Counted from the first letter of the stretch, positions 2,089-54,253 are shown. The stretch: 64,000 bases of DNA from Polyangiaceae bacterium (GCA_033763455.1 JANRKO010000011.1:64001-128000), one strand, 5' to 3'. Notes: generated by a model not told the origin, from the sequence alone. Made by a program: numbers and translations.

Positions 2089-3993
2089 ATGGGCAAAATC
2101 ATCGGAATCGACTTGGGAACCACGAACAGCGTCGTCGCGGTGATGGACGGCAAAGAAGCCAAAGTCATCGTGAATGAGGAGGGCTCGCGGATCACCCCGT
2201 CGGTCGTAGCCTGGGACGACAAGGGCGAGGTCTTGGTGGGTACCATCGCCAAGCGCCAAGCCGTCACTAATCCTGAGAACACGGTCTACTCGGCGAAGCG
2301 CTTCATCGGTCGGCGGTACTCGGAGGCGAAGGGCGATTCGGCTCGCGTCCCGTACAAGCTCCTCGAAGGCAAGAATGGGGATTGCGCCATTGAGGTGCGC
2401 GGCAAGAGCATGGCGCCTCCCGAGGTGAGCGCGAAAGTGCTGCAGAAGCTGCGGAAGGCGGCGGAGGATTACCTCGGTGAATCGGTCACCGAAGCCGTCA
2501 TTACGGTCCCTGCGTACTTCAACGATGCTCAGCGCCAGGCCACCAAAGATGCCGGTAAGATCGCCGGGCTTGAGGTAAAGCGCATCATCAATGAGCCTAC
2601 CGCCGCGGCGCTCGCGTACGGCCTCGATAAGAAGAACAACGAAGTCATCGTTGTGTATGATTTCGGCGGCGGCACTTTCGATATCTCGGTGCTCGAAGTG
2701 GGCGACAACGTGGTGCAGGTTATCGCCACCAACGGCGACACGCACCTCGGCGGTGACGATGTGGACGACGAGGTCATGAAGTGGCTCGCGGCTGAGTTCA
2801 AGCGAGACACCGGTATCGACGTTTCAGCCGATAAGATGGTGATCCAGCGCCTCAAAGATGCGGCGGAGCAGGCCAAGATCGAGCTTTCCTCCAAGCAGGA
2901 AACAACCGTCAATCTTCCCTTCCTCACGGCTGACGCGAGCGGCCCCAAGCACCTTCAGAAAGTGCTCACCCGCGCGAAGCTTGAGCAGATGATTCAGCCG
3001 CTCATCGAGCGCACCATGGAGCCTGTGAAGAAGGCTCTCGCGGATGCCAAAAAGCAACCGGGAGATATCGACGAAGTGGTGTTGGTAGGTGGTTCCACGC
3101 GCATCCCGCTCGTTCAGCAGACCGTCACCAAGTATTTCGGCAAGGAGCCGCACAAGGGCGTAAACCCGGATGAGGTCGTGGCCATTGGCGCGGCCGTCCA
3201 AGGCGGTGTCTTGGCTGGCGACGTGCAAGATGTGGTGCTGCTGGATGTAACCCCGCTTTCTTTGGGCGTGGAAACGCTCGGCGGCGTGATGACGGTGATG
3301 ATCCCGCGCAACACGACGATCCCCACCCAGAAGAAGGAAGTCTATTCAACTGCCGCTGATAACCAGACGTCCGTGGAAATCCACGTACTTCAGGGGGAAC
3401 GCGCCGAATCACGCTACAATCGCACGCTTGGCAAGTTCCACCTAGAGGGTCTTCCTCCCGCTCCCCGCGGCGTGCCCAAGGTAGAGGTTACCTTTGACAT
3501 TGATGCGAACGGCATTCTCAGCGTCAACGCTAAAGACACCGCTACCGGTAAAGATCAGCGCATCACCATCACCGCTTCGAGCGGCATCAGCGAAGCCGAC
3601 ATCGAAAAGATGGTCAAAGACGCCGCTGCGCACGAAGAGGAAGATAAGGCGCGCCGCGAGGCCATCGAGAAGCGCAACCGCCTCGATAACATGTGTTACA
3701 CGCTCGAAAAGCAGATCAGCGAGAACAAAGATAAGCTTGGCGGCACTGATCTTTCGGCTGTGGAAGGCCTCATCAAGGAAGGCCGCGAAGCCATCGAGAA
3801 GCAGAACGACGAAAAGGTCTCAAGCGTTCTTGAGCGGTTAGAGAAGGAAGCGCACACCATGGCCAGCAAGCTGTACGAAGCAGCAGGTGCGGGCGCCGCG
3901 CCGGGCGGCGAAGATGCTGCACCTTCGGGCGAGAAGGAAAGCAAGAAGAAAAAGGCCGACGTCATCGACGCTGAGTTCGAAGAGACGAACTAA
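2089..3993 (+). CDS. dnaK: Molecular chaperone DnaK (Hsp70)
   Basis: [37 protein letters not shown] and C-terminal [16 protein letters not shown]. Confidence 0.98.
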
Positions 3994-21413: not shown

Positions 21414-21598
21414 TGTTCTTGTTTAGCGCATGTTGGCCCGTCTGGCCGTCCTCGACAGCCTTAGGCGAGGCAACCGCCTCAGACTTTCGAGGCTCGACGT
21501 CCTCATCGCATTGTTCTGCGAAGTCGAGGGGATGATTACCACGGGTTCCAGGGGGAAATTTGTCCTCGCGGCACGCCTCTTGCTCTACTTCTCAGGTG

Positions 21599-30164: not shown

Positions 30165-30258
30165 GCGAAGCTCGTGCCAAGGCAAAAATGGGCGAAATCC
30201 GAGAGCAAGCAGCAGCTGGCCTGAAGTGGCGGACTGTCCAAAGTGGCCAAATGGACGG
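30165..30258 (-). promoter_or_regulatory. sigma-54 promoter (TGGCACG-AGCT-TCGC) with upstream boxes shared with the radC promoter
   Basis: -24/-12 at 30165-30179; GGGCGAAATCCGAGAGC and ATGGACGGA boxes. Confidence 0.65.
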
Positions 30259-42952: not shown

Positions 42953-44323
42953 ATGGCTACGAGCTCAGATTTAGAGAACATTTGGACCATAGAGCGCCTG
43001 GTTCCTGGCGGTCGAGGCTTGGCACGTTTGCCCGACGGGCGCATCGGCTTTGCTACTCAAGTGGCCCCGGGAGATAAGATCCGCGTCCTTGCCGCCAAAA
43101 CGCACCGGCAATTCGTAGAAGCCAGTGAATGGACCTTGGTAGAACCGGCAAACGACCGAGTGCACCCAGAGTGCCCTCACTTCAATCACTGCGGAGGATG
43201 TGATTGGATGCACCTAAGCCGCCAAGCAGAGTTAGCCAGCAAACGAGCGCTCCTGTCCGATGCCTTGAAACGCGTCGGCAAACTGGGAGAGGTTCCGCCA
43301 ATAGGTCTTGTAGCTGACCAATTCCCGTCCACCGACCCAGGATATTCAGAAGTCGGGGTAGCCAAAGGTTACCGCAATCGACAGCGCTTCCACGTCAGCC
43401 CCTCAGGAAAGATCGGGCTGTTTGCTGAGAAATCCCACCAGCTCGTCGAAATAGAGACGTGTTTGATTTCTCACCCCGAAGTAGTGAGGGGGCTCGTTGT
43501 ATTGCGGGAGGCGCTCGCTCGCAGGCCGGAGGTTGGGGTGTGGCTGTCGGAAGCTGAAGTGCGGATCTCAGAGCTAGCTCCCAAGCTCGCTGTCCGGCTC
43601 GTGCAAAGAAGCGCAGGTTTCAAACCGGAGCTCACACGAAAGTTTGTGCAAGAGTTGGAACAAAGCTTCGATCTGGTCACAATCGGGAGACATCGCGCGC
43701 TTGAAACTCAGCGCTTTGCCGTTTTCGAAGATGTCGTGGTGGAGATCCCGCCCGCCGCGTTTGTTCAGGTGAACCCAAGCATCAACGCAAAACTCGTGGC
43801 GCACGTGGTGGGTCGCTCAAAAGAGCTCGGTATCGAGTATTTCGCCGATCTATATGCGGGAGCGGGCAATTTCGCGCTCCCCCTCACGGCCGCCGGAATG
43901 CGAGGCGTCGCTCTCGAACAATCACGCCCCGCAGTAACAGCCGCCACCCGGCAGGTTCAGGCACTCAAGCTGGACTCGCGGCTCCAATACATACTCGGGG
44001 ACGTCGCGACGGGTGTGGGAGCACTGGACAAAGCAACCGGTTCACGGCACCGAGCGAGCGAGACACGCCCTTTTGACCTAGTGATACTCGACCCGCCACG
44101 CGAGGGCGCCAAAGACGTACTCACGGGCGTATTGAGGTTGACCCCTCAGCACATAGCCTATTGCGCGTGCGACCCGGTATCGCTAGCGCGGGACCTAAAG
44201 ACGCTGACCGCTTCTGGGTATCAGCTCACCGATGTGACCATTTTCGACATGTTCCCCCGCACCCATCACTTCGAATCAGTAGCTTGGTTGTCACGCGGGC
44301 CTTTGCCTAAAGAGCGCTCCTGA
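42953..44323 (+). CDS. RlmD/TrmA-family 23S rRNA m5U methyltransferase
   Basis: TRAM domain, CPHFNHCGGCDW Fe-S motif, FVQVN, DLYAGAGNF, DPPREG, CDPVSLARD, DMFPRTHHFE. Confidence 0.93.
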   Translation: MATSSDLENIWTIERLVPGGRGLARLPDGRIGFATQVAPGDKIRVLAAKTHRQFVEASEWTLVEPANDRVHPECPHFNHCGGCDWMHLSRQAELASKRALLSDALKRVGKLGEVPPIGLVADQFPSTDPGYSEVGVAKGYRNRQRFHVSPSGKIGLFAEKSHQLVEIETCLISHPEVVRGLVVLREALARRPEVGVWLSEAEVRISELAPKLAVRLVQRSAGFKPELTRKFVQELEQSFDLVTIGRHRALETQRFAVFEDVVVEIPPAAFVQVNPSINAKLVAHVVGRSKELGIEYFADLYAGAGNFALPLTAAGMRGVALEQSRPAVTAATRQVQALKLDSRLQYILGDVATGVGALDKATGSRHRASETRPFDLVILDPPREGAKDVLTGVLRLTPQHIAYCACDPVSLARDLKTLTASGYQLTDVTIFDMFPRTHHFESVAWLSRGPLPKERS

Positions 44324-44868
44324 TAGCGGCGGAACGCGCCGCGCATTTGGTGCTGCACTCGCTGCATAGCTAGGCCTAATTTGGCGCGTTCCTTAGGCGT
44401 CATCACCTGGGCAAGCTCAGTGCCTTCCTCGCGGCGAAGGCGATGGATAGCTTCGGTGGTCGTATCCATCGCGGCCAGCAAGCGGGTAAACGCTCCTTGA
44501 TCCTGGCTATCGGCTGCAACCAGACGCCGCACCTCTTGTTGCTGCTCTCGCAGCTGCTTACCTAGCTCTCGCTTCTTTGCATGGAATTTCAGCAGTGTTT
44601 TCTCCACTTGAGCCTTGCGCGTGGCATCCAAGCCTACTTGTTCGGTCAAAACGCGCTCACGCACTTTGGCCAAACGCCCTTCAAGCTCGCGCCACCGTTC
44701 GCCGTGTTTGCCGTTTCTCGGTCGCTCGTGGGAGCCGCCCTTTGCCGCTCGAACGGGAACGTTATCGGCGTTTTGCCCATGGGCAAGGGAGGTGAGGCTC
44801 CCAAGTAGCAAACAGCCTGCGCCAAGCACCCATACAGCCGCAGTTTTCGTAAACTTCTGAAACATCAT
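44266..44868 (-). CDS. Spy/CpxP-like periplasmic protein
   Basis: Signal peptide; GLDATRKAQV and VMTPKERAKL (LTxxQ-like) helices. Confidence 0.75.
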   Translation of the reverse strand: MMFQKFTKTAAVWVLGAGCLLLGSLTSLAHGQNADNVPVRAAKGGSHERPRNGKHGERWRELEGRLAKVRERVLTEQVGLDATRKAQVEKTLLKFHAKKRELGKQLREQQQEVRRLVAADSQDQGAFTRLLAAMDTTTEAIHRLRREEGTELAQVMTPKERAKLGLAMQRVQHQMRGAFRRYQERSLGKGPRDNQATDSK

Positions 44869-45473
44869 CCACCTCCAAGCAACTCGTTCGTGGCTAGCAT
44901 CCACCAGTCCACATCCTCTTCGGACAAGGGGCCATACAGATCTTCCGCACCCATGCCGCTCCCGAGCTCGGCATCATCGGCGTTGTCCCCAACCAACAGC
45001 AGACTTGCCTCCGCATCAGTGGTAGCCCAATTATGCTCGGCCCCGAGTGCGACTTCATCAGCCTCGGCGAACCCCGGCCCATTCAGAACCTGAGCAGCCT
45101 CTCCGAGAGCCTCCGCCTCCTCGGATGTTGCGGGCCCAGCACCAACCACTCGCAATGCGTTCGGCGTGGCACGCTCTCCTACGTCGTGCTCCGTGCCCTC
45201 CGGCAGAACGCCGGCAGCTTGGGCTCCAACCTCAGCTCCAGCTTGAACTCCGCGCATATCTAGAACCCAAAATCCTGCAGCGGCCGCCGCTAGCACCGCC
45301 GACGCCCCTACGGGTAACCACACCCAACGAGGCCTTCGCTCAAGCGCAGCCGTGGGAATTGCACGCGCCTTGCCCAACATGCGAGCGACTTGCAAATCAC
45401 TCGGCTCCTCGCCAGCCTTTTCAAACAGCTGCCTCAGTTCTACGTGCGCGTTCTGTTCATCCTCGTTGTTCAT
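44865..45473 (-). CDS. Putative anti-sigma factor
   Basis: Single TM, acidic periplasmic tail, directly downstream of an ECF sigma. Confidence 0.65.
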   Translation of the reverse strand: MNNEDEQNAHVELRQLFEKAGEEPSDLQVARMLGKARAIPTAALERRPRWVWLPVGASAVLAAAAAGFWVLDMRGVQAGAEVGAQAAGVLPEGTEHDVGERATPNALRVVGAGPATSEEAEALGEAAQVLNGPGFAEADEVALGAEHNWATTDAEASLLLVGDNADDAELGSGMGAEDLYGPLSEEDVDWWMLATNELLGGG

Positions 45474-45483
45474 ACAATCCTCG

Positions 45484-46092
45484 CTATTCGGAGATCACAT
45501 CCGAGAGCTTCTCCTTCAATTCCTTCAACACCAGGTGCACAAGTACTCGAGCCGAGCCCTCGGTGGTGCCGGTTGCCTGAGCAATCTCAAGATAACTTAG
45601 GTTGGCGTCGAGCCGGAGTAGCGCCACCTGTTGCCGCTTTTTGGGCATTTGTGCCAAAGCTTCGCGAACTCTTTCCGCCAGTCGCTGCGCGGTTAACTGC
45701 TCAGCAGGATTCGCCGTGGGCTCGGGACCCACCGTGGCTTCTTCTCGACGCCGACGCCGACGCTCGGAGCGCAACAGTGTGAGTGCTTGCCTCGCTGCGA
45801 TGGCTCCTAAGAACGCCTTGAGCGAAGTACCAGCCTCGTAGCTACCGAGCTTTTTGAATGCCAACGCGAGCGTCTCCTGCACCGCATCTTCGGCGAGCGC
45901 AGAACTCCCACACGCGCGCTGAGCAATGCGATAAAGGAGCGGCAGGTGCGGCCCCACCAACGAAGCAAACGCGTGTCCGTCCCCTTGGAGAGCACGAAGA
46001 ATGAGTTCCTGCTCGAGCGGCACCGAGCCTTCAGAATTGCCCCGGTACTCTGAAAAAGCTAGGGACCGGTTAGGCAACGTCATGACGTGCAT
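45484..46092 (-). CDS. ECF RNA polymerase sigma factor
   Basis: GDGHAFASLV, AEDAVQET, LAQMP, LSYLEIA..TG..EGSAR. Confidence 0.92.
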   Translation of the reverse strand: MHVMTLPNRSLAFSEYRGNSEGSVPLEQELILRALQGDGHAFASLVGPHLPLLYRIAQRACGSSALAEDAVQETLALAFKKLGSYEAGTSLKAFLGAIAARQALTLLRSERRRRRREEATVGPEPTANPAEQLTAQRLAERVREALAQMPKKRQQVALLRLDANLSYLEIAQATGTTEGSARVLVHLVLKELKEKLSDVISE

Positions 46093-46183: not shown

Positions 46184-46792
46184 TCAGCGCTTTGGTGGCG
46201 ACGCGTGGCGCGATACAAAATCCTGTATCGCATTGAGAATGCCGGCGTTCACTTGCTCGCTGCCTGTGGCATTTTCGCGGAGCCAGGTCTTGGTAACCTG
46301 AAGTGAGTGATCCCCGGAGGGGACCACGTACAGCTCGTTGGGGGCCCGCATTTTCCGCCGCACCGACTCTAAGAGCTCTATGGGACACAACGGATCGCGG
46401 GTGCCCTGCAGAAAAAGCACTGGGGTTCGGAGCTCCTTCAACACTTCGTCGCGAACCTTCTGAAGGTTTCCGGCGCTGAGCAACGGATACCCAAAACACA
46501 CAAGCGCGTTTGGCGGAGACTCCAGCGACACGTGGCAGCCCACTCGGCCCCCCATGCTCTTGCCGGCAAGGATCACCGGCCCCCTGTGGTGGGCTGCAGC
46601 CGCAACCAGGGCTTCCTGGTGCGCCTTAATCAACGTGGGAAGGGGATCGGGCCGGTGTCGCCCCTGAAGCATGTAAGGATAGTCAAACGACTGAACTTTG
46701 CCGACCCGCGCGAGCCGTGTGGCCCAGACGCGCATCCAAGGCGAGCTGGAATCGGCACCGGCTCCGGGAGCAAAAAGCAGTAGTGGCTTCAT
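46184..46792 (-). CDS. Alpha/beta hydrolase (KANSL3-like family)
   Basis: GAGA, FDYPYM, GKSMGGR nucleophile elbow, QGTRD, GDHSL. Confidence 0.9.
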   Translation of the reverse strand: MKPLLLFAPGAGADSSSPWMRVWATRLARVGKVQSFDYPYMLQGRHRPDPLPTLIKAHQEALVAAAAHHRGPVILAGKSMGGRVGCHVSLESPPNALVCFGYPLLSAGNLQKVRDEVLKELRTPVLFLQGTRDPLCPIELLESVRRKMRAPNELYVVPSGDHSLQVTKTWLRENATGSEQVNAGILNAIQDFVSRHASPPKR

Positions 46793-46820
46793 CCCGGCAG
46801 CATGGAGCGTGTGGCACGCG

Positions 46821-46864
46821 AAAAAAAGTCGGCCGGGTCAGAGCTACAGTGCCCCAACCCGGCC
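46821..46864 (-). terminator. Intrinsic terminator 2
   Basis: GGCCGGGUUGGGGC-ACUGUA-GCUCUGACCCGGCC, then GAC and U7. Confidence 0.8.
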
Positions 46865-46950
46865 AGAGGAGCGTTGCGACACGCACCCTACAAAACGACT
46901 CCCCGACCGAAGACTTAACGGGGCCTGTCTTCGTTTTGGCTGCATGCAAC

Positions 46951-47050
46951 AAAAAAAAACAACGGCCCAGAGTGAGGGGGTACTCTGGACCGTTGAGAGG
47001 AAGCGACGGCTGCCCGGGCGGAGGGGGGGATCGCCAAGGCGGCCGTCCAA
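46951..47050 (-). ncRNA. sigma-54-dependent small RNA with two C-rich-loop hairpins (Pxr-like architecture)
   Basis: Promoter TGGCACG-GATA-CTGC; hairpin 1 loop AUCCCCCCCUC; hairpin 2 has a 14-bp stem, loop ACCCCCUC and a following U9; no credible ORF. Confidence 0.8.
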
Positions 47051-47061
47051 GCTCTTACTAA

Positions 47062-47076
47062 GCAGTATCCGTGCCA
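47062..47076 (-). promoter_or_regulatory. sigma-54 promoter TGGCACG-GATA-CTGC
   Basis: Perfect -24 box, -12 GC at the exact spacing, pointing into the sRNA. Confidence 0.85.
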
Positions 47077-47148
47077 TACTCGGATCTACGGTTATTGCGG
47101 TGTTTCCTTCGGGGCGAGGCGAGCGGGACCTTCCAACTTAGCAAATGA

Positions 47149-47166
47149 CGTTTCGTAAACGAAACG
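47149..47166. promoter_or_regulatory. Palindrome CGTTTCG-TAAA-CGAAACG, candidate enhancer-binding-protein site
   Basis: Perfect 7-bp arms about 100-115 nt upstream of the predicted sRNA start. Confidence 0.55.
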
Positions 47167-47329
47167 ATGACGGCACCGAGGAGCCAAACGTCTTCAGACT
47201 TCATGTGCGCGGTGAGCAGGTCCGAGCTCGGTCGGATTTGCATCAAGTGACCCGCCCGCCCACGAGCAAGCCAGGCGGCTTTCCTCCGTTAGAATAATCG
47301 AGCAAGATGGCCGGCAGCCGAGAATCGTT

Positions 47330-47860
47330 ATGGCAAGCGACAGACCAGACTACCCGAGCCCACAGCCGGGTGATCCGGAAGACGTAAGAGTTGCGCTGCA
47401 AGCGGGCGAGCATGCCTGGAAGAGTGGGAACGAACGGGAGGCATTGCGCTCGCTCCAGCGTGCCACATTGGCTGCCACTAAGACCAACCCAGGGCAACGC
47501 GCGGGCCAGTTGGCGCAAGCAGTAGCAGCCCTGTCCCAGCGGGTGGGAGGCCAGGTGCTGACGGTTCCGACTCTCTCGAAACCCGTCCCAACCGGAGCCA
47601 CCCCGGAAAACGACTACTCAGATACAACCGTGGTAGACGGCCCCGCCGAAACGGTCTCCGCGCCCAAGCTCCAGGCGAAAATCACACCACCCAAAGCACG
47701 CATGGCACTGCGCGTGGCAGTGGAACCGACGCCGGGGGAGCCCAACGTACTGAGAGTGCACTTGCTCGAGGATGGTCGCGCGCCTGCTCAGGGCTTGCAC
47801 GAGGCTTTCCTCGTTGCAGTGGAACCCTTGGCGGATCTGCTGCGCCGCAAAGATGCCTAG
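47330..47860 (+). CDS. Hypothetical protein
   Basis: 176-aa ORF with helical N-terminus and Pro-rich linker, in a gap between genes. Confidence 0.65.
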   Translation: MASDRPDYPSPQPGDPEDVRVALQAGEHAWKSGNEREALRSLQRATLAATKTNPGQRAGQLAQAVAALSQRVGGQVLTVPTLSKPVPTGATPENDYSDTTVVDGPAETVSAPKLQAKITPPKARMALRVAVEPTPGEPNVLRVHLLEDGRAPAQGLHEAFLVAVEPLADLLRRKDA

Positions 47861-47922: not shown

Positions 47923-49242
47923 TCAAAGAAAATCTTTAAGCATCCGGCAACGCTTGGGATTTTTGAGCTTTCGAAGGGCTTTGGCTTCGATCTGACGAAT
48001 ACGCTCGCGCGTAACCTCGAAATCTTGGCCAACCTCTTCGAGCGTGTGCTCGCTCTTTTCCTCAATCCCAAAGCGCATGCGCAGCACCTTCTCTTCGCGT
48101 GGCGTAAGCGTCTTTAACGCACGCCCAGTTTGCTCGCTCAAGCTGCTTTCGATGGCCGCCTCTACAGGGCTGACAGCGCCGGCATCTTCAATGAAATCGC
48201 CCAGGCAGCTGTCCCCTTCCTCGCCAAACGGTGTCTCCAGGCTCAGCGGCTCCTTCACCAGCTTGAGCACCTTGTTGAGCTCAGTGGGAGATATCTCCAG
48301 CTCCTTGGCGATCTCTTCCGGCGTCGGCTCGCGCCCGAGCTCATGCATCAAAAAGCGGGCAGTGCGAAACACCTTGTTGGTGGTTTCCAGCATGTGCACC
48401 GGGATGCGAATGGTCCGTGATTGATCCGCGATCGCTCGGGTGATGGCCTGGCGGATCCACCACGTGCCGTAAGTGGAGAATTTATACCCGCGTCGGTAGT
48501 CAAACTTTTCTACCGCGCGCATCAAGCCAATGTTGCCCTCTTGCACGAGGTCCAGGAACTGAAGGCCGTGGTTGGTGTACTTTTTGGCAATCGACACGAC
48601 CAAGCGCAAATTGGCCTCGACGAGCTCTGCCTTGGCACGCTCCGTGAGGCGCTCACTCCGGCAAATCTGCTCGTAGGTGGCTTGTGCCTGCTGCGATGCG
48701 CTCGCTGAAAGCTGACGCTCCTGCATCTGCTGCTGATGCGACGCCTTCTGGTGCTTGATGAGCCGCTGAATGAGCTTACCGCTCAGCTGCATCTGCTTCA
48801 AAATCTCAATGCACTTGCCACGGTGTTCACGGATGCTGGCCGTGACTTCCTTCTTCTTCTCGGCAGTGCTGCCCTTACTCTCTTCAACGAGCTGAGCAAT
48901 CTGCTTCTCTAGCTTTTTGATCTTCTCGATCAGGCCCAGGAAGCGCTGAACGGATTCCTCTTCGGAACGGTTTTCAATGTCTTCCAGGTCGCCCAAGAGC
49001 GTGTTCGCTCGGATCTTCCCGAGCCGAAGTTGCTCAGCAAGACGCATGAGCTCCTCCATTGCCCAAGGGCTGCTAAAGAGCGCTTCGAGGATCTGGACTT
49101 GGCCTTCCTCAATGCGTTTCGCAATCTCAATTTCGCGCTCACGGGTTAACAGCGCAGTCCGCGCCATCTTTGTGAGGTAGGCGCGGACGCCATCACTCTC
49201 TAGACCCGAAGCATCACCCGATCTCTGAGTTGTCTTTTTCAA
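47923..49242 (-). CDS. RpoD-family sigma-70 factor lacking region 1.1
   Basis: DGVRAYL..M....LLTRERE (1.2), [60 protein letters not shown]. Confidence 0.93.
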
Positions 49243-51508: not shown

Positions 51509-51820
51509 CTAGCGAAGGAGCGGAGAGCATCCCCGAACAAAGGCAAAAACCCGAAAGCTAAGTACTGTTTGGGCGAACGGGTGGCCGGGCCTGAGCCGCA
51601 AGGGGCGCCTGCCGACACCCTGTGAGCCTGGAGTTGCCCCTGGAAACAAGGCCTGGAAAAGCCCAGCTCATGCTAAAGCGGGGGCGGCCCAAGCTAACGC
51701 AGGAGCTTCCGCCCTAAGCTCCGGACCTCCTCAGTACCCCATCCAATGGCAAGGCACCCCTTCATGCTTCCTTCGACCACGCCAGAGCGCCCACCTCGTC
51801 GAACGTTCCGCCCCACCACC

Positions 51821-54253
51821 ATGATGAGGTGGATTACTGCGTGGTTAAGCTGCAGCTTGCTTTTCCTGGCGGCCATTTCGGCTCCGAGCTGCGCGCGAAC
51901 CCAGCTTTGCGATGCGCTCACGGGCGAGTGCCCGGTCATTAAAGGTGCGGTCGGAACCGGTGGTACTGGGAACGGCGGCACTGGCGGGAACGGCAATATG
52001 GGGTGCACAACCGGCACCGCTTGCAATGGCCTGTGCGTGAACACGGCGACTGACCCCAAGAACTGCGGAGCCTGCGGCAACGTGTGTGGCGATGGCCTTG
52101 TCTGCCAGGGCGGTACCTGCACAGGGACGTGCAACCCAGGCCTTTTGCAGTGCGGCAGTGAATGTGTGAAGGCGGATAGCGATCCCGCAAACTGCGGAGC
52201 CTGCGGCAACGTGTGCGCCACGGGTCAAAGCTGTTCGAATGGCGCGTGCAGTTGTGCCGTTGATAGTGCGTTGTGCAACGGCACGTGTCGCTCTCTCGCG
52301 AGTGATCCGAATAACTGCGGAACCTGCGGCAACGTGTGCGGGCGTGGCGCCCCATTTTGCCAACAAAATGGCTGTGTTTCTCAGTGTCAGGCGCCTTTTT
52401 CAGCCTGCGGCCTGAGCTGCGTAGATAGGCTGAGCGACCCTCTGAACTGCGGGGCTTGCGGCAACGTGTGCGGAGGGGGGCGCAGCTGCTCAGCAGGCGC
52501 TTGCGTGTGCCCTGCCGGTTTTCAAGACTGCAATGGGCAGTGTGTTGACCTCAAAGCTGATGGCGCCAACTGTGGAGTTTGCGGAAACAAGTGTGACGCC
52601 ACCTCTCAGTGCCTAAACGCCAAGTGCGAATGCCAAAATGGCGGCGTTCGCTGCAACAACCTCTGCACCACCACAGCCAGCGACCCCAATAATTGCGGCG
52701 CTTGCGGCAACGTCTGCGGCAACGGCAAGGTCTGCGCGAACGGAGCGTGCCAAGATCTGTGCCCTGTGCCACTCAGCTCCTGCAACGGCAGCTGCCTCGA
52801 TCTCACCTCCGATCCCGCCAACTGCGGCACCTGCGGAAACAAGTGCGCGACGGGCCAAAGCTGTGAAGGTGGGTCCTGCCGCTGCCAAGGTGGTGGCCTA
52901 GCTTGCGGCGGCGTGTGCAAAGATGGGCTGAGCGATCCTAATAACTGCGGCGCCTGTGGCAACGTCTGCGGGGCACGGCAAACGTGTTCGGGAGCGAAGT
53001 GCCAATGCGACGCAACCAGCACCGATTGCAACGGCACCTGCACCAACACGGCCGCAGATCCCAATAACTGCGGTGCTTGCGGCAAGGCTTGTGCGAATGG
53101 CCAGGTCTGCCAATTCGGACAGTGCACCACGAGCTGCACCGCGCCCCTTCAGAACTGCAGCGGCGGGTGCGTTGATCTCACTACCGATAGTCAGAACTGC
53201 AGTGCCTGCGGCATCGCGTGTGGTGCCGGGCAAGTGTGCTCGGGCGGGAAATGCGCTTGCCCCAATGGGACCACTTCCTGCAGCGGGCAGTGCGTGAGCA
53301 CCCTCACCGACCCCAATAACTGCGGAGGGTGCGGCCTTGTGTGTTCGGGGGGCAAGAGCTGCAGTGGAGGCCTCTGTGTATGCCCAGCTGGCGCCAGCAA
53401 CTGTGGCGGTGTCTGTGCTTTTACCTCAACGGATAAGGCCAATTGCGGAAGCTGCGGTGTTTCGTGCGGTGCCGCACAATCCTGCAACGCGGGCATGTGT
53501 TCTTGCCCAGGAAGCCAGACCGCGTGCAACGGAGCCTGCGTGGACGCGCTCACGGACGCTGCCAACTGTGGCGGTTGCGGTCGCGCCTGCGGGGCTTCGC
53601 AGGAGTGCATCTCGGGGGCTTGTCGGTGCGACGCCCGCACCACATTCTGCAATGGGCAATGCTCGAATACGCGCAGCGATCACGAAAATTGTGGAGCCTG
53701 CGGCAACGCCTGTGCTGCCAACCAAGTGTGCAGCAACGGTAATTGCCAGACGATGTGTTCTGGCAACAATGTGCAATGCATGGCCAATTCCTGCGTGAGC
53801 TTGCGGGACGACGTGAACAACTGTGGAGCGTGCGGTGTTGCCTGCGCAAGTGGGGAGGCTTGCTTCCGCGGAACCTGCGCCTGCAGGCGAGGCCTGCAAG
53901 CTTGCAACGGTACCTGCACCGATCCCCTCAACGATCCGAATAACTGCGGAGCGTGTGGCAAGGCGTGCGGCATAGGCGCCGTGTGCAATGGCGGGACGTG
54001 CGGTTGCCCGGGCGGCTCGGTAGCGTGCGGTAACGTTTGCGCCAATCCGCTTACGGATCCATCGAACTGCGGGAGGTGTGGCAACGCGTGCCCGGCTGGG
54101 GCCTCCTGCTTGAATGGCGCGTGCGGCTGTGCAGGGGAAACGAACCTGTGCAAAGGCGCGTGCGTGAACGTGCTGCTCGATCCACAGAACTGTGGCGGCT
54201 GCGGCAAGCCCTGCGCACCTGGACAAAGCTGCAACAACGGCTCTTGCCAGTAG
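51821..54253 (+). CDS. Cys-rich repeat lipoprotein (18 DxxNCGxCG / STIG1-like repeats)
   Basis: Signal ending APSC; 18 counted ~41-aa repeats of about 8 Cys each. Alternative start 51746. Confidence 0.9.
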   Translation: MMRWITAWLSCSLLFLAAISAPSCARTQLCDALTGECPVIKGAVGTGGTGNGGTGGNGNMGCTTGTACNGLCVNTATDPKNCGACGNVCGDGLVCQGGTCTGTCNPGLLQCGSECVKADSDPANCGACGNVCATGQSCSNGACSCAVDSALCNGTCRSLASDPNNCGTCGNVCGRGAPFCQQNGCVSQCQAPFSACGLSCVDRLSDPLNCGACGNVCGGGRSCSAGACVCPAGFQDCNGQCVDLKADGANCGVCGNKCDATSQCLNAKCECQNGGVRCNNLCTTTASDPNNCGACGNVCGNGKVCANGACQDLCPVPLSSCNGSCLDLTSDPANCGTCGNKCATGQSCEGGSCRCQGGGLACGGVCKDGLSDPNNCGACGNVCGARQTCSGAKCQCDATSTDCNGTCTNTAADPNNCGACGKACANGQVCQFGQCTTSCTAPLQNCSGGCVDLTTDSQNCSACGIACGAGQVCSGGKCACPNGTTSCSGQCVSTLTDPNNCGGCGLVCSGGKSCSGGLCVCPAGASNCGGVCAFTSTDKANCGSCGVSCGAAQSCNAGMCSCPGSQTACNGACVDALTDAANCGGCGRACGASQECISGACRCDARTTFCNGQCSNTRSDHENCGACGNACAANQVCSNGNCQTMCSGNNVQCMANSCVSLRDDVNNCGACGVACASGEACFRGTCACRRGLQACNGTCTDPLNDPNNCGACGKACGIGAVCNGGTCGCPGGSVACGNVCANPLTDPSNCGRCGNACPAGASCLNGACGCAGETNLCKGACVNVLLDPQNCGGCGKPCAPGQSCNNGSCQ

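Follow-up and report, generated by a model that had tools for sequence, protein, structure and literature searches.

A DNA stretch of 64 kb from a Polyangiaceae bacterium (GCA_033763455.1 JANRKO010000011.1:64001-128000; the whole of this stretch is termed the window) very probably contains a gene for a regulatory RNA of about 100 bases with its own sigma-54 promoter and terminator. The presence here of a self-contained, unannotated small RNA (sRNA) gene of the sigma-54 type was the original prediction, made from the window alone, and is supported by stems that covary and a promoter that is conserved in relatives. Transcription of the gene, its start and end, and its dependence on sigma-54 and an activator are predictions from the DNA sequence. 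On balance, we favor a reading in which this is an independent, activator-controlled, sigma-54-driven gene of the minus strand whose RNA would repress translation at ribosome-binding sites through two loops.

The sRNA is located in a 1.1-kb gap separating two minus-strand genes, in a window with a G+C content of ~60% (Table 1). Directly 3′ of the hydrolase gene, the ECF sigma factor, the 202-aa ORF and the Metal_resist protein form an apparent envelope/metal-stress cluster (44266-46092, minus).

Table 1. Positions in the window of the predicted sRNA gene, its control elements and the neighboring genes
Feature	Position	Strand	Comment
Predicted sRNA transcript, ~100 nt	47050-46951	minus	start predicted from the -12 element; end placed at the U-run
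Hairpin 1	47047-47005	minus	14 pairs in three stacked segments; 11-nt loop AUCCCCCCCUC at 47031-47021
Hairpin 2	46995-46960	minus	14-pair stem; 8-nt loop ACCCCCUC at 46981-46974; doubles as intrinsic terminator
U9 tail of terminator	46959-46951	minus	nine T
Sigma-54-type promoter TGGCACGGATACTGCT	47076-47061	minus	11/12 consensus positions
Promoter doublet GG (-24)	47075-47074	minus
Promoter doublet GC (-12)	47063-47062	minus
Palindrome CGTTTCG-TAAA-CGAAACG	47149-47166		exact 7-4-7 inverted repeat; candidate UAS for a sigma-54 activator
RpoD-like sigma-70-family gene	47923-49242	minus	upstream neighbor of the sRNA
ORF without family match	47330-47860	plus	short relative present in L012
Abhydrolase_11 alpha/beta hydrolase	46184-46792	minus	downstream neighbor of the sRNA
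ECF sigma factor	45484-46092	minus	directly beyond the hydrolase
202-aa ORF without assigned family	44865-45473	minus	possibly the anti-sigma factor of the ECF sigma factor
Metal_resist-domain protein	44266-44904	minus

The promoter of the window was the sole match to the strict pattern TGGCAC-N5-YTGCW. As 21 of 100 shuffled sequences also yielded at least one match to this pattern, the promoter match taken alone was weak evidence. With a looser score of at least 10 of the 12 consensus positions, eight sites were found in the window versus ~4.7 expected at the background rate. The seven sites other than the sRNA promoter included CGGCACGCCTCTTGCT at 21569 (plus), TGGCACGAGCTTCGCA at 30179 (minus) and a site at 47508 (minus).

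The predicted transcript begins ~12 nt downstream of the GC doublet. The minimum free energy (MFE) structure returned by RNAfold for positions 47052-46951 consisted of exactly the two hairpins, with a folding energy of -51 kcal/mol, while 200 dinucleotide shuffles had a mean of -29.4 ± 3.1 (z = -6.87) and none folded as well. Hairpin 2, with 14 pairs, eight of them G-C, followed by nine T residues, was picked by a terminator scan as an intrinsic terminator, and CCCCCTC was present in both loops. The near-consensus promoter, the pair of hairpins ending in U9, the CCCCCUC heptamer in each loop and a perfect palindrome at enhancer distance had all been claimed for this site, and each was recovered in the sequence, the palindrome being exact.

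The significance of these features depends on relatives, since it is there that the design of promoter, hairpins and loops recurs. Genomes were scanned with a pattern consisting of CCCCCTC, a gap, CCCCCTC, a second gap and T6; the promoter was deliberately omitted, and its conservation could, therefore, be judged without bias. At least 120 loci matched (all counts are lower bounds, and the genome of the window was not among the matches listed), most of them unrelated to the window sRNA. At least seven Polyangia-type loci had the design of the window (L012, L019, L040, L046, L094, L099 and L117). Each carried a sigma-54-like element a few bases before the first hairpin. The hairpins, two or three per locus, had C-run loops, and the final one was a terminator of 14 to 17 pairs followed by U6 to U9. 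Among the matches listed, these relatives were labeled Sorangium, Polyangiaceae, Polyangiales or, in one instance, 'delta proteobacterium' MAG, in keeping with the Polyangiales-type genome that had been suggested for the window.

The number and arrangement of hairpins differed between copies. In L099 (228-444, plus), a single promoter-proximal hairpin preceded three terminator hairpins that were nearly identical and had C-rich loops, and in L046 three repeated hairpin modules were present at 2965-3300 (plus), with a second complete sRNA gene containing two C-run loops on the opposite strand 1.5 kb away (1423-1530, minus). The gene context was partly shared with the window: in L099 a homologous hydrolase gene (64% identity over 53 aa) lay downstream on the same strand, and in L012 the 3′ end of the sRNA adjoined an RlmD-like gene, a type of gene found 2.6 kb from the sRNA in the window. 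Orthology of the window sRNA with some relatives (L099, L012) is thus supported by synteny, and the sRNA appears to be a member of a modular Polyangia family whose copies have two or three hairpins or form tandem arrays.

Nine further loci with myxobacterial, 'delta proteobacterium' or neighboring labels (L045, L060, L081, L115, L103, L114, L014, L079 and L052) matched the pattern but, lacking the combination of promoter and hairpins, were not counted as family members. Approximately 15 of the matches listed were Mesorhizobium, Aminobacter, Neorhizobium or Phyllobacteriaceae loci, and all five that were tested were bona fide ar7 genes (105 to 118 bits). Units of two hairpins that combined C-rich loops with a terminator but had no sigma-54-like promoter were also seen in L032, L003, L016, L055 and L114, whose hosts were Hyphomonadaceae, Henriciella, Marinimicrobia, a gammaproteobacterial MAG and a Bdellovibrionales MAG; these units scored 28 to 55 bits with the covariance model R2, described below. 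This suggests that the twin C-loop hairpin design recurs widely outside any Rfam family.

In order to score promoters, the 115 nt upstream of loop 1 were searched for GG-N10-GC and the remaining consensus positions, 12 positions in all. A promoter with at least 10 of 12 positions was present at the equivalent place in five of the seven related loci listed, although the promoter had not been part of the search pattern, and in six of the eight family matches when the window was included. None of 128 unrelated pattern matches reached even 9 of 12, and the background was 32 sites of at least 10/12 in 862,792 16-mers, or ~0.004 per 115 nt. An extra copy in the flank of L046 (minus), found by the model search and not by the pattern, had the promoter TGGCCCGTCGCCTGCA with 10/12. 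The GG and GC doublets were exactly 10 bases apart in eight of the nine family copies. The plus-strand copy of L046 had a weaker promoter (8/12), and L117, from Sorangium cellulosum So ceGT47, had no canonical promoter: its element at 212-229, TGGCACACTCCGATTGCT, corresponds to TGGCACACTCCGTGCT of L099 with two extra bases, placing the doublets 12 instead of 10 bases apart, a spacing that is not expected to be functional with sigma-54. The sigma-54 reading is supported mainly by conservation of the promoter, which the original prediction had named as a check, and sigma-54 control of the sRNA is well supported by sequence. In Myxococcus, rpoN is essential.

A covariance model was built from the window sequence alone and then iterated (R1 and R2). 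Searches of loci without the window were performed with filters off and were repeated with default filters, and matches to the model were found in relatives. When four or two family RNAs were aligned with MAFFT, the structures disagreed within hairpin 1, and these alignments did not enter the model. In an alignment of only seven rows from six sources (two rows from L099) that was fitted to the model, 92.2% of the cells formed standard pairs, compared to 34 to 52% when the partners were slid by one to three columns, and both sides changed in 23 of the 28 pairs; none of 500 shuffles reached any of the five measures. Helix 2 (changes on both sides in 13 of 14 pairs, 95.9% of cells pairing) and helix 1 (10 of 14 pairs and 88.3%) both contributed to this covariation, which had likewise been put forward as a test of the gene. 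RNAalifold, when applied to a plain MAFFT alignment of six RNAs, recovered hairpin 2 with 14 pairs, 10 of them compensatory, but not hairpin 1, the stems of which were too divergent for MAFFT; hairpin 1 did fold in each family RNA individually.

Since CCCCCTC had to occur twice for a locus to match, the loops were invariant partly by construction. Independent evidence comes from loops that the pattern did not cover, which were likewise runs of at least seven C residues, namely, those of the first hairpin of L040, the first hairpin and third repeat of L099, both hairpins of the minus-strand copy of L046 and the downstream units of its plus-strand copy. CCUCC, the exact complement of the SD core GGAGG, was present in most family loops and was lengthened by a C-run. 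Models R1 and R2 scored ar7 genes at 28 to 56 bits and failed to separate them from the Polyangia copies because all of the loci had been preselected for C-rich loops; hence, model scores alone cannot define the family.

The palindrome is a candidate binding site for the activator. Its center lies 107 nt upstream of the predicted start, and a palindrome search returned two matches that were the two strands of this one site, while none of 100 shuffles gave two. Inverted repeats with arms of 7 nt are common in these G+C-rich upstream regions, and only the shared core TTTCG-N4-CGAAA was, therefore, counted in relatives. With at most one mismatch, the core was found in four of nine family upstream regions (at -107 in the window, -108 in L012, -85 in L019 and -84 in L099), that is, in three of the eight copies other than the window, compared to a background of 0.010 per 200 nt, estimated from 433,091 bases of unrelated loci. 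The upstream region of L040 had only a version with two mismatches, and the core was absent from four of the nine regions even with two mismatches allowed. The plus-strand copy of L046 had a different 7-4-7 palindrome, CGTTGCA-GCCG-TGCAACG, at -86, which indicates that different activators may serve different family copies. No Sigma54_activat domain was detected by a domain scan of 28 of the 32 window ORFs of at least 280 aa, and no gene for an enhancer-binding protein was found in the 3-kb flanks of L012, L019, L040 and L046. An A+T-rich block was shared by L012 (AACTATTGAAATCA) and L019 (AAGTAATTGAAATTA) between palindrome and promoter, 10 to 30 nt upstream of the promoter; presumably it resembles a DNA-bending (IHF-like) site, and the window had no equivalent.

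At gathering thresholds, the only Rfam match in the whole window was a tRNA at 1868-1940, and for the sRNA neither the window nor the seven related loci contained a match at the gathering score of any family, in agreement with the novelty that had been proposed. With a cutoff of E ≤ 10, positions 46600-47400 gave eight matches, all below threshold, of which ar7 and ar14 were the best and the rest were miRNA/lncRNA noise; a search of the seven related loci at E ≤ 0.1 detected nothing, ar7 included. The actinobacterial 6C RNA was not among the eight matches, its phylum differs, and we know of no sigma-54 promoter for it. The match to ar7 (RF02342) had 29.7 bits (E = 7e-4 in an 801-base search) versus a gathering score of 60. 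In both RNAs, a hairpin with a AUCCCCCUCUCCG-like loop precedes the terminator hairpin, which has CCCCUCC in its loop, and true ar7 genes of Mesorhizobium, Aminobacter and Neorhizobium also matched the loop pattern of the genome scan and scored 43 to 56 bits with the Polyangia-built model. However, ar7 has three hairpins and 145 nt, whereas the window RNA has two hairpins and ~100 nt, and the host phyla differ. The promoters of ar7 are of the sigma-70 type, and at ar7 loci the only matches to GG-N10-GC (7/12) lay within the first hairpin and were not promoters.

The match to ar14 (RF02344) had 23.6 bits versus a gathering score of 58.8. This RNA belongs to the cuckoo family (ar14/NfeR1, RSs0680/CcsR), described as having modular hairpins with C/U-rich, anti-Shine-Dalgarno (anti-SD)-like loops in variable number and in tandem copies (PMC4615179), a modular trait that the Polyangia family shares, as two-hairpin, three-hairpin and tandem forms occur among the relatives. 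The cuckoo loop motif, given as CCUCCUCCC in that report (PMC4615179), was absent from both loops of the window RNA, and the loops of the window family are C-runs ending in CUC(C). The promoters also differ, being sigma-70 for NfeR1 (PMC10746234) and RpoHI/RpoHII for RSs0680a-d (PMC4615179), in contrast to the sigma-54 type of the Polyangia family. The described cuckoo members are all alphaproteobacterial. Other sRNAs with sigma-54 promoters include Qrr and GlmY/Z, and the trans-acting Qrr sRNAs of Vibrio are controlled by an enhancer-binding protein (LuxO) and sometimes occur in several copies; they have no sequence or structure likeness to the window sRNA, nor does their seed consist of a C-run in hairpin loops.

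In the mechanism that we propose, an enhancer-binding protein encoded elsewhere would bind the palindrome near -107 and switch on sigma-54 RNA polymerase at the -24/-12 promoter, and transcription would run from about 47050 to the hairpin-2/U9 terminator near 46951. The resulting RNA of ~100 nt would expose two C-rich loops (CCCCCCCUCC and CCCCCUC) resembling the anti-SD end of 16S rRNA. Each loop would pair independently with the G-rich ribosome-binding sites (GGAGG, GAGGGGG) of several mRNAs and would block the initiation of translation, as in the alphaproteobacterial anti-SD sRNA NfeR1. This anti-SD mechanism is proposed by analogy. Repression through loop-SD pairing is taken as the likeliest mechanism, at roughly even chances, because of the CCUCC loops and the precedents of cuckoo/ar14 and NfeR1; the cuckoo RNAs are described as carrying an anti-SD motif in each loop of their modular hairpins (PMC4615179). 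A search of the 64-kb window detected six G-rich heptamers located 8 to 11 nt before an in-frame start codon (ORFs of at least 80 aa), none of them a convincing target, and most of these six candidate sites were inside longer ORFs.

A genuine sigma-54-driven sRNA could act differently, by titrating a protein that binds C-rich loops, by sponging RNA or by pairing outside ribosome-binding sites, for instance with G-rich sites in coding regions or 5′ ends, so as to alter mRNA stability. This would account equally for the anatomy and conservation of the gene; the lack of an SD-positioned target in the window is consistent with it, and the several identical loops and the tandem arrays of L099 and L046 would suit titration. 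We nonetheless consider it rather unlikely, given that most loops contain the exact complement of GGAGG and that RNAs of such design that have been characterized act at translation start regions: in NfeR1, three loop anti-SD motifs redundantly silence mRNAs at that region (PMC10746234), and 6C, a C-rich-loop sRNA of Actinobacteria, is said to bind several mRNAs through such loops without a chaperone (PMC6486639). The possibility that the locus is no gene at all, and consists of a chance promoter-like site beside ordinary terminators or repeat hairpins, can draw on the facts that promoter-like matches are not rare and that the loop pattern matches many unrelated genomes. It seems scarcely credible, in view of the conservation of the promoter, of its spacing to the first hairpin, of compensatory stems and of the upstream motif across loci that share no other sequence.

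Alternatively, the hydrolase and ECF-sigma genes that follow (46792-44266, minus) may be regulated by the hairpins as a 5′ leader or attenuator, with the promoter driving these genes as an operon and the hairpins acting as conditional terminators. A homologous alpha/beta hydrolase gene downstream on the same strand in both the window and L099 fits such an arrangement, as does the presence of a second structured element with its own terminator between sRNA and hydrolase. This reading is improbable; it is disfavored because the sRNA 3′ end abuts a convergent gene in L012 (RlmD-like) and in L019 (Na+/H+ antiporter), which leaves nothing to lead into. The terminators are, moreover, strong, three of them following in a row in L099, and no alternative anti-terminator fold was evident in the MFE or centroid structures of the window RNA. 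The RNA might instead be orthologous to Pxr, the developmental sRNA of Myxococcus, and have diverged from it. Pxr resembles the window RNA in being a multi-stem-loop sRNA of ~100 nt from Myxococcota with a sigma-54-type promoter and enhancer site (PMC5568312), a promoter of this type being present in the window and conserved in relatives; published probe and primer sequences also imply a C-rich stretch in Pxr (PMC5568312). Against this identity, all pxr homologues examined in that report are flanked by nla19, a sigma-54 activator gene, on one side and by a gene for NADH dehydrogenase on the other (PMC5568312), whereas the neighbors in the window are an RpoD-like sigma factor and a hydrolase, without either of those genes. 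Furthermore, the origin of pxr is reported to lie at the base of the Cystobacterineae (PMC5684412), a lineage different from Polyangia; Pxr, compared by its description, has three stem-loops, with SL1 and SL2 conserved, versus two in the window RNA; and none of the eight Rfam matches at E ≤ 10 was named Pxr, which would count only if Rfam 15 contains a Pxr model. Orthology with Pxr is, hence, very improbable.

Of the two origins offered in the original prediction, a distant Pxr homologue or a new family, the second is favored, and genomic context and hairpin number speak against the first; the label 'Pxr-like architecture' was less apt than a likeness to ar7, cuckoo (ar14) and actinobacterial 6C hairpins with C-rich anti-SD loops. 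The sequence comparisons and the published descriptions of Pxr support the assignment of the sRNA to a new family of an already known type that is set apart from Pxr. Both ingredients were known, sigma-54-driven sRNAs from examples such as Pxr and C-rich-loop sRNAs from cuckoo, ar7 and 6C, and it is their combination that is distinctive. Literature searches covering the main texts of papers turned up no published account of an sRNA of this kind from Sorangium or Polyangia, and a search for Myxococcota sRNAs found only Pxr, reported for a different suborder. To our knowledge, almost nothing is known of RNA regulators in Polyangia (Sorangium and its relatives), bacteria with very large genomes, many sigma-54 activators and a rich secondary metabolism.

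More tentatively, and with somewhat less than an even chance in our estimation, the window sRNA may be the founding example of a Polyangia-wide modular anti-SD sRNA family that grew by hairpin duplication and was wired to sigma-54, its likeness to ar7 and cuckoo being due to convergence. If the proposed reading is true, one signal-sensing activator could throttle the translation of many mRNAs with G-rich ribosome-binding sites, and the likeness to ar7/cuckoo would mean that the same solution had been reached convergently in a different phylum. No principle would be changed, as sigma-54-driven sRNAs and C-rich-loop sRNAs both have precedents. The family would also be another case, apparently independent of the first, in which modular hairpins bear several anti-SD loops, and would help in asking why this design recurs. 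The conserved sRNA, its readable promoter and the candidate activator site together offer a possible entry to one sigma-54 regulon, and the family is a candidate for a new Rfam family.

A model search detected no second copy of the sRNA in the window; the only other match, with 25 bits, was a neighboring terminator (46822-46890). A second strongly structured element is present on the minus strand between the sRNA terminator and the hydrolase start (46823-46950). It comprises a long, imperfectly paired hairpin and, after it, a terminator of 15 pairs (46865-46830) with T7, has a folding energy of -58.2 kcal/mol (z = -3.2) and lacks a C-rich loop, and its 25 bits with the window-only model reflect a match simply as a terminator. 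This element could represent another small RNA, an extension of the sRNA by read-through or a leader of the hydrolase gene. Elsewhere in the window, an ORF at 51746-54253 (plus) encodes an 835-aa protein with ten Stig1-type cysteine-rich repeats.
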